Assembly: GCA_965205265.1 (NCBI GenBank)
Contig: CBDBGH010000003.1
Span: 1,216,001 to 1,280,000, forward strand
DNA: 64,000 nucleotides
Reading direction: 5' to 3'
Origin: Alphaproteobacteria bacterium
Lineage (GTDB): Bacteria; Pseudomonadota; Alphaproteobacteria; Bin95
A program made the position numbers and the translations under genes. Positions 50,181 to 55,100 of the stretch are shown in pieces; the stretch's first letter is position 1; every line of letters starts with the position of its first letter. The notes under the pieces are model-generated. The model was given only the letters and a program-made list of their open reading frames with translations. It searched no databases and had not been told where the DNA came from.

Positions 50181-50271
50181 AAAGCTGTTTGGCTCCTTTT
50201 GTTCTCTTTTTGCATTGACAGGCAGCAAACGTGAACAAACAATGGACTCCGGGTAACGGGGGTCTCCATCC

Positions 50272-50880
50272 ATGACTGAGTTGAATCGCTGGCTTGCGGA
50301 ATGGCAGCAGCCCGGCACCGTTTGGTATATCAAACGCCTTCCCGCGCATTGCATCCTTTCCAGCAGTGAAGGACGGAACGAATGGCTTATGCCGGCGCAC
50401 ATAATGGCGCGGGCATTTCCCGAACTGTATATGGTCAGAGCAGGCCATACCGACATTCGTTTCGACCTGTATGTCGATTCCCATGCGGAGCATCGTGTCG
50501 TTGGAATAGAAGGGATGAAGGGTAAGTTGCGTGGCTCGCCAAGCCGGCGGGTCTGCCTGATGGATTTGACCGGCACGCCTTCCGCGCTTCTGGACCCGGA
50601 GAATGTCGGTGCCATGACGCTGTTTGCGTTTCCGCCGGGCGGGCCGGAGAGCCCGAAATTCGGGACTAGGAGAAATGCGACGGAAGGCCGTGTCTGGATT
50701 ACGCGCACTGGCGACGAGGAGGACATCGTGGAAAATTATGTCGGCCCGGTCGATGGTCGACCTCCGATGACTTGGCGCATCCGGGAGAAGGGCTACGAGA
50801 ATATGGATGCCTTTCTGATGTCAATGGCCCGTTTGCACGCCGAGGAAAACGATGTCGAGAATGAGCTTCAGTTTGAATGA
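50272..50880 (+). CDS. Stand-alone EcoRII N-terminal (effector-binding, B3-like) domain protein
   Basis: WYIKRL, FPEL, VDSH, LDPENVGAMTLFAF and VWI...EEDIVE resemble EcoRII-N as recalled; no catalytic C-terminal domain. Confidence 0.65.
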   Translation: MTELNRWLAEWQQPGTVWYIKRLPAHCILSSSEGRNEWLMPAHIMARAFPELYMVRAGHTDIRFDLYVDSHAEHRVVGIEGMKGKLRGSPSRRVCLMDLTGTPSALLDPENVGAMTLFAFPPGGPESPKFGTRRNATEGRVWITRTGDEEDIVENYVGPVDGRPPMTWRIREKGYENMDAFLMSMARLHAEENDVENELQFE

Positions 50881-51770
50881 ACTTTAGGCAGCGTGAGTCT
50901 TTACCCTTTGAACACATACTCGCGGTGGTATTGGAGAAATTGTCGGTGCGGTCGGTTTTGCGGCAAATTCGGGAGCAGAAGCTGTCGGTCATTATTGAAC
51001 AATCGCAGCACATTTGTAGGGATTGATCTCTCGACAAGAAGCAGGCCGTAATCGTCGTCAACCGACATAAGACCCCGGTCGAACATCCAGTGCATCGTGC
51101 CGCTGAGCGCGAGGCCGTTGCGCAGACTGTCGGGGCCATTGTCTTTGACTGGACGAATATGCGCGGCTTGCACCTCGGACCGCCCGCCGCCGTTTATCAG
51201 CCGGATGCCGCTGAATGCGCAGGTATCGGCATACGCTGTCTTGACAGTCGATGAGAAGGCTCGGTCGCGAAAGGGCCGCTGTGACATCTGGGCGACAATT
51301 TCCCGGTGTATCTCGAACGGTTCCTGTTCCTCGTGAAACCCGTCGAAAGGAGATATTGAAGGAAGTTCGATAACACCGGAAAATCCGACGTTCAAAATTC
51401 GATAAAAGTCGTCGTCATCTATATTTCGTACAGACCGGCCGAATTGGCCTTTGTTCGTAGAACCATCAAGCTTCTGCAATGTGCGTTCATAGTAGAGACT
51501 TCCTTCACGAAATGGCACTGGACGATAAAATTCAAGGAATTTTTCAACATAGGCATAATAGTGGTACGGAAGTACATCATCTTCTTCGATATGGGACAGC
51601 TTTGCCACTGCAAAGTAGCATTGTCTTCCACCAGACCGGCGCGGTTCATAGTAAATGATCCAGTCCCCGATGGCGCTTTGCACAACCCTGAGGTAAGTCC
51701 GAGGAAAATGGTAACGAACTTCCAGCAAGTCGTCATAAACTGAGTCTATTCTTGTAGTTAGAACAACTTT

Positions 51771-51930
51771 GGGCCTTACAAAGATGAGTTGACGGCGTCA
51801 TGCCGCCAGCATCCCTGCGTTTTCACGGATCGCAGGGGTCCGCAAGCCGGAACGCCCCTCCCCGTGCAGCAGCGCCAGTCCCCGACGCCGGATGTTGCTG
51901 CCGGCATTCGCGTCGGCATGGTCCGCATGG
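51771..51930 (-). ncRNA. Putative TnpB omega/reRNA overlapping the tnpB 3' end (5' boundary uncertain)
   Basis: Expected position for TnpB guide RNAs; terminal hairpin TGGCGGC-ATGAC-GCCGTCA ending in GTCAA at 51789. Confidence 0.5.
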
Positions 51931-53054
51931 CCGCAGGCCGTGCACTGGAATTCGGCCCGCGAACGCCGCGAGCCGGCATCGACATGGCCGCAGGCGGCGC
52001 AGGTCCGGCTGGTATGGGCCGGGTCGACCGCGAGCAGCCGTCCCGCCTTGTAGCCGAACATGAAGCGCAGTTCCGCCCATCCCGTGGCCAGGATGACGCG
52101 GTTGAGCCCGGCCTTCTGCCGGACCCGGGCGCCCGGCTCCTCTGTCGTGCCCCGGGCGCTGCGCGTCATGTTCCGGACCCGGAGGTCCTCGACGGCGACG
52201 GTATGGGCGGCGTCGGCGACTGTCCGCGAGACATGGTGGCGCCAGTCGCACCGCATCCCGGAAAGGCGCCGCCTCGTCTTCGCCAGACGGGCGCGGGTGC
52301 GCTCCCGGCGCCCGGAGCCGCGCTTCTGGCGCGCCAGACGCCGGGCAAGGCGCTTCGCCCTCGCCTCCAGCCGCCGCGTATCCGGGGCATGGAACAGGCG
52401 GGCTTCCGGCCCCGGACCGCTCGCCGCCACCTGGCCAGCGTTCATGTCCACCCCGATGACGCTGTCGTCATCCTCGTGGACCGCCGGCGCCGGGACCCGG
52501 TAGCAGACCACGGCGTACCACTTGCCGGCCTCGCGCTTCAGCACCGCCGAGACCGGCTCGCCATCCCCATGCGGGTTGCCGCCCCGCCGGCGGACCGCAA
52601 GCGGGCCGAAACCCGGAAGGCGCAGGCAGGCCGCGCCGGACCCGCAGTCCGCGCCGGGCCGGGCCCGGTCCTCCAGCCTCACCCCCGAGACGAAGGAGAG
52701 GCTGTCGAACCGCCGGCGGGACCGGAACCGGGGAAAACCCGGCTTCTGGCCCGCCTTCACCCGCCGGAAGAAGCCCTTCATCGCCTCGTCCAGGCGCTTC
52801 AGCGTCCCGCGCTGCACGGCGACCGGAACGGCCGCCATCTCGGGGTCCTCCCGGCGGCACACCGTCAGGCTCTTCGCCTGGTCGATATAGGAGAGCGACC
52901 GCCCGGCCAGATGCCAGGCGTCGCAGCGTTCCTGAAGGGCGGCGTTGTACAACTGCCGCTGCGCCTCCAGAACCCGCTCCAGACGCCGCCAAACGGACCG
53001 GCGGCCCGGCAGAAGCCGGAATACCACCTGACGGTGCGTGAAGACCTCGCTCAT
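51798..53054 (-). CDS. tnpB: RNA-guided endonuclease TnpB
   Basis: QLYNAALQER, KPGFPRFR, RuvC-I GVDMN, RuvC-II VEDL, Zn finger CAACGH/CTACGH, RuvC-III HADANA. Confidence 0.93.
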   Translation of the reverse strand: MSEVFTHRQVVFRLLPGRRSVWRRLERVLEAQRQLYNAALQERCDAWHLAGRSLSYIDQAKSLTVCRREDPEMAAVPVAVQRGTLKRLDEAMKGFFRRVKAGQKPGFPRFRSRRRFDSLSFVSGVRLEDRARPGADCGSGAACLRLPGFGPLAVRRRGGNPHGDGEPVSAVLKREAGKWYAVVCYRVPAPAVHEDDDSVIGVDMNAGQVAASGPGPEARLFHAPDTRRLEARAKRLARRLARQKRGSGRRERTRARLAKTRRRLSGMRCDWRHHVSRTVADAAHTVAVEDLRVRNMTRSARGTTEEPGARVRQKAGLNRVILATGWAELRFMFGYKAGRLLAVDPAHTSRTCAACGHVDAGSRRSRAEFQCTACGHADHADANAGSNIRRRGLALLHGEGRSGLRTPAIRENAGMLAA

Positions 53055-53325
53055 GCGGCCGAACTGGATACGATACACGGCAATGTCAACTTACCTTTGT
53101 AAGCCCCACAACTTTCGGCACAGCGCAGGGCCTCTTGCCATATGATTTTGTTATTCAATTACAACAAAAAATCATATCAGACAACACAGGTCAGCTTTGG
53201 ACCATGCGCCGGTAACCCGCCTTTCGGAGACGCATGACAATTTCCGTGGGCTTGAATCAATGATTTTCAACGGAGGCAAAGCGTCGGGTCGGTCCCGGAC
53301 GGCAGGAGTATGCGCCGATTGCCGG

Positions 53326-54261
53326 TTATCCCTCCGGCGCCTTTTCCTGCGCCGTCGCATCCCATTCGAATTTCGACGCCCGGGCCAGCCGTTCGACGTC
53401 CACCACGCCGGTCAGGCGGCGGCCCTCGACGATCCAGGTCGGGTAGCGCCGGATGTCCTGGACCGTGCAGGCGGCGGTGAGGGGGCCGTTCGGGCCCGAG
53501 GGGGCGCATTCGGTATAGGGCAGCCGTTTGGCGGAGGCGGTGAAGAGCGCCTTCTGCTCCTGGCAGGCCCGGCACCAGTAGGCGCCGTAGAAGCGCGCGC
53601 CGCTTTCCTGCAAATGGGCCGCAAGCGCCTTGAGATAGGGGTCCTCCGGGCCGGCGGCGGGATCGAAGAGGCCGCTGAAATGCAGGTGAAGGCCGAGAAC
53701 CAGCACGAGGGCGGCGCTGACCGGGAACAACAGGGTCCGGCGCCACCCCCGCTCCGGCGGTTGCGAGGGGCGGCGCAGGACCGCGAGCAGGAACAGCAGG
53801 TTCATCAGCGCGAAGGAGGCAAGGCAGTATTCGCAGACCGCCCCGATCTCGAAGACCGATACCAGGGTGAGGAACCAGCTCACCCCGAAGCCGACGCAGG
53901 CGACGAGAAACAGAGGCCCCCATGCCGACGGCCGGCTGCGCAGGCGCCACGCCAGACCGGCAAGAAGCGCGTAGGTAAGCAGGCCCCAGAGCGCCATCGG
54001 CAGGCCGAGCAGGGTGGACCACCGGCTCGACTGCACGATGTCGCACTCCGACTCCGCCCCGCACCAGGCCGGATGCTCGCCGAACCAGGCGACCAGAGTC
54101 AGATAGCCGGTGAGCAGGACGCCGGCTGCCGCCAGGACGAGAATCCCGTTGTCGAGGGACAGTATCGCGCGCGCCGGCGCCCGGGAGGCGGCTGCGGCCG
54201 GCTTCGGGGCAGCCGCGGCCCGGCCGCGGCGGGCGCTCGGTCGTTTGCGCTTTCTGGGCAT
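53326..54261 (-). CDS. VKOR-thioredoxin fusion (disulfide bond formation)
   Basis: C..C loop, SRWS, CEYC in the TM domain; FYGAYWCRACQEQK and YPTW in the Trx-like domain. Confidence 0.88.
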   Translation of the reverse strand: MPRKRKRPSARRGRAAAAPKPAAAASRAPARAILSLDNGILVLAAAGVLLTGYLTLVAWFGEHPAWCGAESECDIVQSSRWSTLLGLPMALWGLLTYALLAGLAWRLRSRPSAWGPLFLVACVGFGVSWFLTLVSVFEIGAVCEYCLASFALMNLLFLLAVLRRPSQPPERGWRRTLLFPVSAALVLVLGLHLHFSGLFDPAAGPEDPYLKALAAHLQESGARFYGAYWCRACQEQKALFTASAKRLPYTECAPSGPNGPLTAACTVQDIRRYPTWIVEGRRLTGVVDVERLARASKFEWDATAQEKAPEG

Positions 54262-54399
54262 CCTGAGCTTCCCGGCTGTGGTCCGTTCCGCCCTTCGGGA
54301 GGGCAATGGGTCCGGGTAGTGGTACGCGGTTGTCGGATGACCTTCAATTCCCCGTATTACCGCTTTGCAAGGCAACGCCGCCGGCGGGGATTGAATTTT

Positions 54400-55100
54400 C
54401 CTGTTTTTGTTCTTGATTTGAACTTGACATCTGGTGGAGTGTGCTACAATGGCCCCGAGGGAAGAGGCATCCGGAGCCGCTTCCCCGGGCGCCGCGCGGC
54501 CGAGCGGCGCCGTTTTTTGAAAACCCGTGAGAAGCCGACGGGAAAGGTGCGCCCTCCGCCTCGCGCGCGCAATCAGGCGCGCAAACCGCGCCGGCGCGAA
54601 ACGCCCGCCCGCGGGCGCAGGCGCCCGCGCTCGGGGTACGCGCGAATCAGGGTCCCGCCGCTCCGGCAAACCGGGCGGCGGGGAGAACGGGATGGAGTGG
54701 AACGAAACGGGAGAAAGGAACGACATGCAGGAAGCCGACGGACACGACTTCGAGGAAGGACGAGCCTCATGCCTCAAACGGCTACAGCATATGCCTCGTT
54801 CGCATGCGGATCATGACATCGCATGACATGCCGTAACGACCCGGGATACAGGCGCGTCGCCCCTTTGTGTCGCCCCGGCCTCCGAGCCCACCGGATTCGC
54901 ACATCGCCCCGGCCGTCCTCCGCGTCCATTTCCCCCTCATCCCGAGTAGCGGCGTCAGCCTCGTATCGAGGGACGGCGGCTTCCTCCGGAAACCCATCCC
55001 TTCGGCGGGCTCAGGACAGACCTATGCCCGAACCAGAGACTGCATATACGCCGCTCGCATGCGGAACATGACATCGCATGACACAACATGACATCGCATT
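54400..55100 (+). repeat. Dispersed promoter-bearing element, copy B
   Basis: TTGACA...TACAAT at 54424-54450; blocks shared with 7560-8340; tandem ATGACATCGCATGACA units. Confidence 0.8.

Follow-up and report, generated by a model that had tools for sequence, protein, structure and literature searches.

A transposase-less tnpB cassette with IS1595-type ends, probably mobilised in trans, in an alphaproteobacterial genome

In a 64,000-nt stretch of an alphaproteobacterial genome (the window; C3:1216001-1280000 of its own genome, G000), a tnpB gene lies alone between terminal inverted repeats (TIRs) and a perfect 8-bp target-site duplication. We consider this unit to be, most probably, a non-autonomous mobile insertion cassette of the IS1595 family, which carries a TnpB-omegaRNA module and is moved in trans by an IS1595 DDE transposase. 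With IS1595-type ends and 8-bp duplications on a tnpB-only unit, it seems to depend on a DDE transposase encoded at another locus of the genome, and since tnpB is its only gene it is classed as a non-autonomous derivative, not an insertion sequence (IS) proper. Cas12 descends from TnpB, which also serves as a compact genome editor; to our knowledge, the natural role of TnpB has been established only in IS605/IS607 elements, whose excision is scarless and which create no duplications.

The tnpB unit and its copies

The unit occupies 51771-53107 (1337 bp), and direct reading showed its 23-bp inverted ends to be identical at 20 of 23 positions. The repeat at the tnpB 3' end (right end in tnpB sense; 51771..51793, minus strand) is GGGCCTTACAAAGATGAGTTGAC and terminates in a conserved CCC, while the repeat at the tnpB 5' end (left end in tnpB sense; 53085..53107, plus strand) has the reverse complement GGGGCTTACAAAGGTAAGTTGAC. 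Outside them lie the two copies of the duplication, neither assigned to a strand: 51763..51770 on the tnpB 3' side (ACAACTTT on the plus strand, AAAGTTGT in tnpB sense) and 53108..53115 on the tnpB 5' side (ACAACTTT). An earlier note on this DNA had described just such a unit, and both direct reading and a repeat search of the window bear it out, the latter listing an inverted pair (24 nt, 88% complementary) together with a direct repeat. The tnpB open reading frame (ORF) runs along the minus strand at 51798-53078, giving 426 aa from the GTG at 53078; based on the homologue consensus, the ATG at 53054 was chosen as the likely start, which gives 418 aa. It is the sole credible gene, and the sole long ORF with a family match, inside the unit, and only 4-6 nt separate it from each inverted repeat. 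The G+C content of the unit (70-76%) is similar to that of the genome (68%), and that of the surrounding patch is lower (43-60%). A sigma-70 promoter scan of the unit found no promoter.

The tnpB product matches PF01385 (OrfB_IS605, 1.2e-13) and PF07282 (Cas12f1-like_TNB, 5.7e-14), both above the curated cut-offs, and the family profile matched the solved ISDra2 TnpB over the full length at 2.5e-50. The RuvC residues D211, E297 and D389 were invariant in 20 of 20 relatives, as were the zinc-finger cysteines (CxxC...CxxC) C360, C363, C379 and C382; in an alignment with ISDra2 TnpB, the three acidic residues fall on its GVD, TEH and DRDEN motifs. The catalytic triad and zinc finger are intact, as had been claimed from the single sequence, and judged by these residues the protein looks functional.

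Seven full copies of the cassette, with 0-1 differences among them, and one 518-bp partial copy were found in the own genome. Because seven near-identical full copies exist, the inverted ends and duplications are not a matter of chance, and the cassette is recently active in this genome. Perfect 8-bp duplications flank six of the seven, each with a different sequence (ACAACTTT, ACCTCGAA, GAACGTTT, TCTGCTTT, TCGTAGAA and TTTCCTTT). The seventh copy, at C3:4855744-4857080, has unlike flanks (TACGCATT and AACGTGTT, 5/8). At a distance of 5.7 kb from it lies the 518-bp fragment (C3:4849555-4850072), which consists of the tnpB 5' part and begins with GGGCC rather than GGGGC; the unlike flanks and the nearby fragment suggest a later rearrangement between copies. 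The sole difference among the genomic copies is at window position 52912, with T in the window copy and C in the other six and in the contigs of four public runs. No further tnpB paralogue was detected in the own genome by tblastn.

Membership of the IS200/IS605 family was considered and rejected on the 23-bp inverted repeats, the 8-bp duplications in six of seven copies and the count of zero matches to the Y1 transposase PF01797 in the own genome, which is 98.98% complete; the same search was positive in 6 of 14 known genomes. IS607 membership was rejected on the inverted repeats and duplications, with no search made for a serine recombinase. Elsewhere in the genome, C3:4289950 (minus strand) carries a solitary end, GGGGCTTATATCGATTACTTGAC, of the same type as the ends of tnpB cassettes in other genomes (L070-L073), and neither a partner end nor tnpB was found near it.

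IS1595 elements and relatives of the cassette

A loose search of the genome with the end motif returned two more kinds of element. The first is a 2840-bp element at C3:1919671-1922510, which is bounded at either side by the 23-bp end GGGGATTACAAAGATGACTTGAC and flanked by the 8-bp duplication TCATGTTT; by manual count, this end agrees with the two tnpB cassette ends at 20 of 23 and 19 of 23 positions. Its 332-aa protein contains DDE_Tnp_IS1595 (1.3e-41, positions 3-149 of 153) and Zn_ribbon_IS1595 domains, and a further ~1.8 kb is without a Pfam match above the cut-off; tblastn found no homology of this passenger region to tnpB. The earlier note had named IS1595 as one DDE family that makes such ends and had proposed a transposase-bearing autonomous element sharing the TIR as a test, and this element, with near-identical ends and its own 8-bp duplication, agrees on both counts. 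The partnership in trans between a DDE transposase and TnpB, which that note went on to propose, is largely supported by the shared ends and the candidate transposase, while its novelty was overstated, since DDE-linked and lone TnpBs are described in PMC10691335.

Besides fragmentary matches, the own genome has six further full-length transposase genes of the IS1595 family (54-57% identity). Four of the six are identical tblastn matches, and two of these four were resolved as 2836-bp elements with the ends GGGGATTATATAC.... Passenger genes were noted in several IS1595 elements. A D12-class N6-adenine methyltransferase is carried by L159 (C3:2077505-2080341), which belongs to the type with two resolved 2836-bp copies, and by L161 (C1:107860-110850), and an XcyI-like restriction endonuclease is carried by L160 (C3:3938753-3942998). 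The cargo of the IS1595 family here, tnpB included, is thus made up entirely of DNA-cutting or DNA-marking 'selfish' modules.

The second kind is a family of miniature inverted-repeat transposable elements (MITEs) of 190-250 bp (for example C3: 42319-42552, 1205672-1205919 and 5413311-5413544), with a few longer derivatives, which have IS1595-type ends and 8-bp duplications. Seventeen copies with neither tnpB nor transposase and with duplications matching at 7/8 or better were counted in the own genome. The MITE interior showed no relation to the cassette, and the RNA core described below was not present in it. Many MITEs and the 2840-bp IS share the short target ..TG TCATGTTT TGTC.., in either orientation, which points to a repeated hot-spot sequence. 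One longer region, C3:2143223-2146002 (L158, 2780 bp), was weighed as a possible further cassette or helper and rejected: it has MITE-type ends, the duplication AAACATGA and a complete IS66-family element inside (a helix-turn-helix protein and an IS66 DDE transposase), and is a MITE with a nested IS66.

The same association of ends was seen in other genomes. A genome of the same genus (G015) encodes TnpBs of 55-78% identity between GGGGCTTACACAGAAAGGTTGAC-type repeats, with the duplications ATAATTCC and TTTTTCAT at two of three resolved copies, and also an orthologue of the transposase of the 2840-bp element (74% identical). This orthologue is encoded by a 1724-bp element whose ends are similar and whose duplication is AAAAAATA. 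PF12762 transposases were present in all five other cassette-bearing genomes tested versus 1 of 14 control genomes. The upstream ends of the IS1595 elements in those five genomes have the tip GGGRATTATA, and sometimes the whole repeat, in common with the tnpB cassettes; counted by tips, cassettes and IS1595 elements agree in six other genomes. Cassettes and co-resident IS1595 elements are alike in the inner TTGAC box, the end tips and the length of the duplication. Within a cassette, the left and right tips are consistently unlike (GGGG vs GGGA/GGGC). We take these ends to resemble those of the ISNwi1-like group of IS1595.

Among species-representative genomes, a scan identified 80 loci encoding TnpB relatives of 36-75% identity, from Thalassobaculaceae, Paracoccaceae, Boseongicola, other alphaproteobacterial metagenome-assembled genomes and Rhodothermales, and hence from two phyla. 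End pairs were analysed in the 68 loci of at least 7 kb, and at 46 of them a GGGG[AC]TTAT-type inverted pair surrounds a 1.0-1.5-kb tnpB-only unit; these TIR-bounded relatives were grouped by TnpB similarity and end type. Duplications of 8 bp were perfect at 27 of the 46 and matched at 7/8 at six more. Other tnpB copies with the same ends and different duplications, as anticipated in the earlier note, therefore occur both within the genome and among relatives, and the closest homologues carry this same kind of end. Only one of the 80 loci had an IS1595-like match within 3.5 kb of tnpB, and that match was weak, so tnpB is habitually alone.

These observations bear on two other explanations. The first is that an ordinary tnpB-only element of IS605/IS607 type came to lie by chance inside an IS1595 MITE, and that the composite then spread in the own genome only. 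MITEs with these ends are indeed common here, and nesting does occur, as the MITE holding IS66 demonstrates. Nevertheless, the gaps of 4-6 nt between the ORF and the repeats leave no space for IS605 hairpin ends, the MITE interior is unrelated to the cassette, the same architecture recurs at 46 of 68 loci in two phyla and down to 36% TnpB identity, and the end repeat covaries with upstream RNA sequence (see below); we regard chance nesting as very improbable. The second is that TnpB itself, or a host factor, is the mobilising enzyme and that the likeness to IS1595 ends is convergent. The unit does lack a transposase, and its relatives hardly ever have one nearby. However, duplication length, tips and the inner TTGAC box match those of co-resident IS1595 elements, the transposase family is present in every one of the five genomes tested, and TnpB is described in PMC13565253 as an RNA-guided nuclease dispensable for transposition, which together leave this explanation scarcely credible.

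RNA structure, flanking bases and a possible homing cycle

An omegaRNA-like structured region of four helices overlaps the tnpB 3' end at 51771..51885 (minus strand), with compensatory changes across 49 relatives. When the last 100 nt of 50 elements were compared in tnpB sense, conserved blocks (CACGG...CCGTGAA) were found together with segments that vary yet remain complementary. RNAalifold on a MAFFT alignment of 49 sequences gave 18 pairs in the four helices. Paired cells amounted to 95.5% versus 24-51% when the partners were slid, and double-change cells to 112 versus 6-29, a comparison in which the consensus is somewhat favoured over the slid controls as it was derived from the same sequences on which it was scored; the covariation score was reached by none of 500 shuffles. 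Folding of the 240-nt 3' region alone gave a z of -0.64, with a local hairpin seen.

The structure involves the end of the element itself. In helix 4 the inner half of the end repeat pairs with upstream sequence, in helix 1 the terminal CCC pairs with a GGG ~110 nt upstream, and the structure terminates at the last base of the element; the right-end repeat (51771-51793) is in this way also the 3' arm of the terminal RNA helix. The loop of the last hairpin contains the tnpB stop codon (51798-51800), and a terminator-like match on the minus strand of the unit corresponds to the terminal RNA hairpin. No Rfam family was matched over 51500-53400; a LAGLIDADG-2 hit in that interval, where E values up to 1 were admitted, scored 29.7 bits against a gathering score of 94.9 and was taken as chance. 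From its conservation and covariation, the 3' structure, end repeat included, is probably an omegaRNA.

We then examined the flanks of 35 perfect-duplication insertions, oriented by tnpB (6 from the own genome, 2 from G015 and 27 others; at least 15 genomes). At position -9, which directly adjoins the 5' edge of the duplication on the flank upstream of tnpB, G was found in 32 of 35 insertions. Within the duplication, A occupies the first position in 24 of 35 insertions and G in none, and all 35 have A or T at the second position. On the opposite flank, just 11 of 35 have C at the mirror position (Fisher 3e-7 vs 32/35), and at tnpB-less ends in the own genome, namely the 17 MITEs and the 2840-bp IS, G was found in 14 of 36 (Fisher 4e-6). 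By manual count, six autonomous IS1595 elements have G at 3 of 12 ends; these six are the ones with both ends resolved among 28 candidate regions, most loci being too short. In the window, the candidate last base of the target-adjacent motif (TAM) is 53116 (minus strand), a G in tnpB sense directly outside the duplication. A G bias specific to the tnpB-upstream flank fits a TAM, which, by analogy with Fanzors in DDE elements, may span the boundary of the duplication as G-A-W. At the filled junction, CCC precedes the duplication bases instead of G.

A cycle can be proposed from these features. An IS1595-family DDE transposase encoded elsewhere in the genome, for which the 2840-bp element at C3:1919671-1922510 would be the best candidate, may bind both 23-bp ends and move the cassette, the 8-bp staggered cut becoming the duplication. 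Transcription would read through the boundary at 51771, so that the guide would be copied from the flank, that is, from the duplication and the sequence beyond it, with 51763-51770 as the predicted first bases of the omegaRNA read-through. With a putative TAM of G outside the duplication followed by A and then A/T at the first two duplication positions, TnpB could cut the same site when empty, either after excision or on an uninterrupted copy, and repair from a filled copy would reinstate the element. The filled junction would escape cutting because the G lies outside the duplication and CCC stands in its place. The fuller proposal is offered tentatively, as possible rather than probable: a clade of TnpB in at least two phyla, without IS605/IS607, that exists solely as a transposase-less rider of IS1595, with an end repeat built into its omegaRNA and a TAM straddling the duplication edge, and that cuts the empty site, spares the filled one and thereby homes restoratively.

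A serious alternative, which we nevertheless rate as rather unlikely, is that an IS1595 transposase moves the cassette in trans, TnpB has no role in retention, and the G bias reflects an asymmetric transposase-end complex choosing its target. The consistent difference between left and right tips would suit such a complex, conservation outside the duplication is confined to a single base, the small set of controls is partly non-independent, and DDE excision gives homing less scope, as argued in PMC13565253. On the other hand, MITEs with equally unlike ends do not have the bias (14 of 36 ends), the G stands exactly at the required last TAM base if the guide is read from the flank, and catalytic residues and RNA structure are kept over 36-100% identity, which argues for selection on the nuclease function.

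Several points weigh against a TnpB-assisted, IS1595-driven cassette as set out above. Its proposed movement, transcription and cleavage are deduced from sequence; no RNA run was found to contain cassette sequence, and no contig spanning the empty site was found in the four DNA contig runs compared over 50900-53900. The ends of the 2840-bp element differ from those of the cassette at 3-4 of 23 positions, and with other IS1595 paralogues in the genome, its transposase ranks as a candidate for the actual helper. End-pair detection failed at 22 of the 68 loci, with the right end still visible in at least six of them. As regards the TAM, positions -13 to -10 have no clear consensus, and a one-base core (G) is weaker than the 4-5 bases of known TnpB TAMs. 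Control sites are limited in number and not independent, many of them falling in a single repeated hot spot (TCATGTTT), and since the left and right tips differ consistently, the flank bias could stem from an asymmetric transposase complex. Finally, as discussed in PMC13565253, cut-and-paste DDE excision already leaves a break, which makes the benefit of a homing nuclease less obvious.

Known systems and the insertion site

The association of TnpB with DDE transposases is already known. Altae-Tran et al. (2023, PNAS; PMC10691335) describe six DDE-associated TnpB branches (DDE-1 to DDE-6), all with inverted terminal repeats, and take lone TnpBs with nearly identical ends as trans-mobilised. The cassette resembles these branches in having TnpB within inverted repeats, the tnpB 3' end near the transposon end and lone forms taken as trans-mobilised. 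It is unlike them in its partner, which here is IS1595: PMC10691335 names IS630 as the partner of DDE-6, PMC13565253 names ISL2, IS630 and IS1031, and in the supplement of PMC10691335 IS1595 appears only within a list of transposase profiles for mobility comparison. It is also unlike DDE-5, the catalytic site of which is described there as rearranged, in that the canonical D/E/D is kept. The DDE link in PMC10691335 was drawn from a DDE gene within 1 kb of tnpB; with a weak nearby match at one of 80 loci, the IS1595-TnpB relatives would fall outside it, and they may sit, labelled or unlabelled, in the tree of that paper, the locus files and tables of which lay outside the comparison. A literature search, to which those files and tables were likewise external, found no paper naming the IS1595-TnpB pairing. 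What goes beyond the literature examined is the IS1595 partnership, the obligately lone habit in two phyla, the end repeat in the RNA and the G (A, W) signature.

By its ends, the cassette belongs with IS1595. Passenger-carrying forms of this family are called 'transporter IS' (Siguier et al. 2009, as cited in PMC3129680), and like these and the ISNwi1-like elements, the cassette has 8-bp duplications, GGGG[AC]TTAT ends and a passenger between them; unlike the family proper, it lacks a transposase gene, carries a TnpB-omegaRNA module as cargo and has one end repeat incorporated into the RNA. The features of a mobile insertion cassette, namely IS ends, a duplication, a passenger and no transposase, are all found in the unit. 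It shares these, and the proposed mobilisation in trans, with MIC231 of IS231 (De Palmenaer et al. 2004, as cited in PMC3129680) and differs from it in the IS family and in a passenger that is a mobile-element nuclease and may serve the cassette. With IS1341-group (IS200/IS605) elements it shares the single tnpB gene, the protein family and the multi-copy state. However, classical tnpB-only elements 'lack TIRs and TSDs' (target-site duplications) according to PMC3627910 and PMC13565253; the unit has both and is therefore not of IS1341 type. A lone tnpB is usually filed under IS200/IS605 in annotation, and the present relatives would be better placed with IS1595.

A signal described in PMC10691335 is like the flank signature in kind, with a different sequence. 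A further parallel is eukaryotic. In DDE elements that carry Fanzor, the 5' duplication is interpreted as belonging to the TAM, and the RNA scaffold contains the 3' duplication (PMC13565253). Both systems place a TnpB-type nuclease in an element with TIRs and duplications, and the G-A-W boundary signal parallels the Fanzor TAM; the cassette differs in being prokaryotic, in its long, variable 8-bp duplication and in the conserved G outside it. If the proposed cycle is correct, the cassette would be a prokaryotic counterpart of Fanzor, with restorative homing adapted to a duplication-making DDE transposon. Recently active and multi-copy, with a defined boundary, a conserved RNA and a TAM predicted at the duplication edge, it lends itself as an uncomplicated model for the question of whether, and in what manner, RNA-guided homing operates in cut-and-paste elements, and for that of how TnpB in bacteria might have taken the step observed in the Fanzors of eukaryotes.

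The insertion interrupts a gene on the minus strand. Its body, with an HNH_2 endonuclease domain, lies at 50901..51770 and is separated by the insertion from its first two codons, GTG CCG, at 53116..53121. When the unit and one duplication were deleted in silico, the frame read GTG(M)-P-K-V-V-L-T-T-R-I-D-S-V-Y-D-D, and the two best homologues of the host gene begin M-V-K-A-V-F-T-T-R-V-S-P-S-Y-D-D and M-A-K-A-V-F-T-T-R; the alignment of homologues to the 289-residue frame on the downstream side of the insertion begins at the first residues of that frame. The restored frame matches the homologue starts, and the insertion therefore sits after codon 2 of the HNH_2-domain gene, in line with the claim of the earlier note that exact removal restores the host gene.

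The interrupted gene belongs to a low-G+C island at 50200-53200 (43-60% vs 68%), together with an EcoRII-N domain gene at 50272-50880 (plus strand). The two genes look like a modification-dependent restriction pair, now inactivated by the tnpB cassette. An ORF of 483 aa on the minus strand at 53326-54777 begins with a long low-complexity N-terminal region and has, at residues 212-332, a domain of the VKOR (vitamin K epoxide reductase) family.

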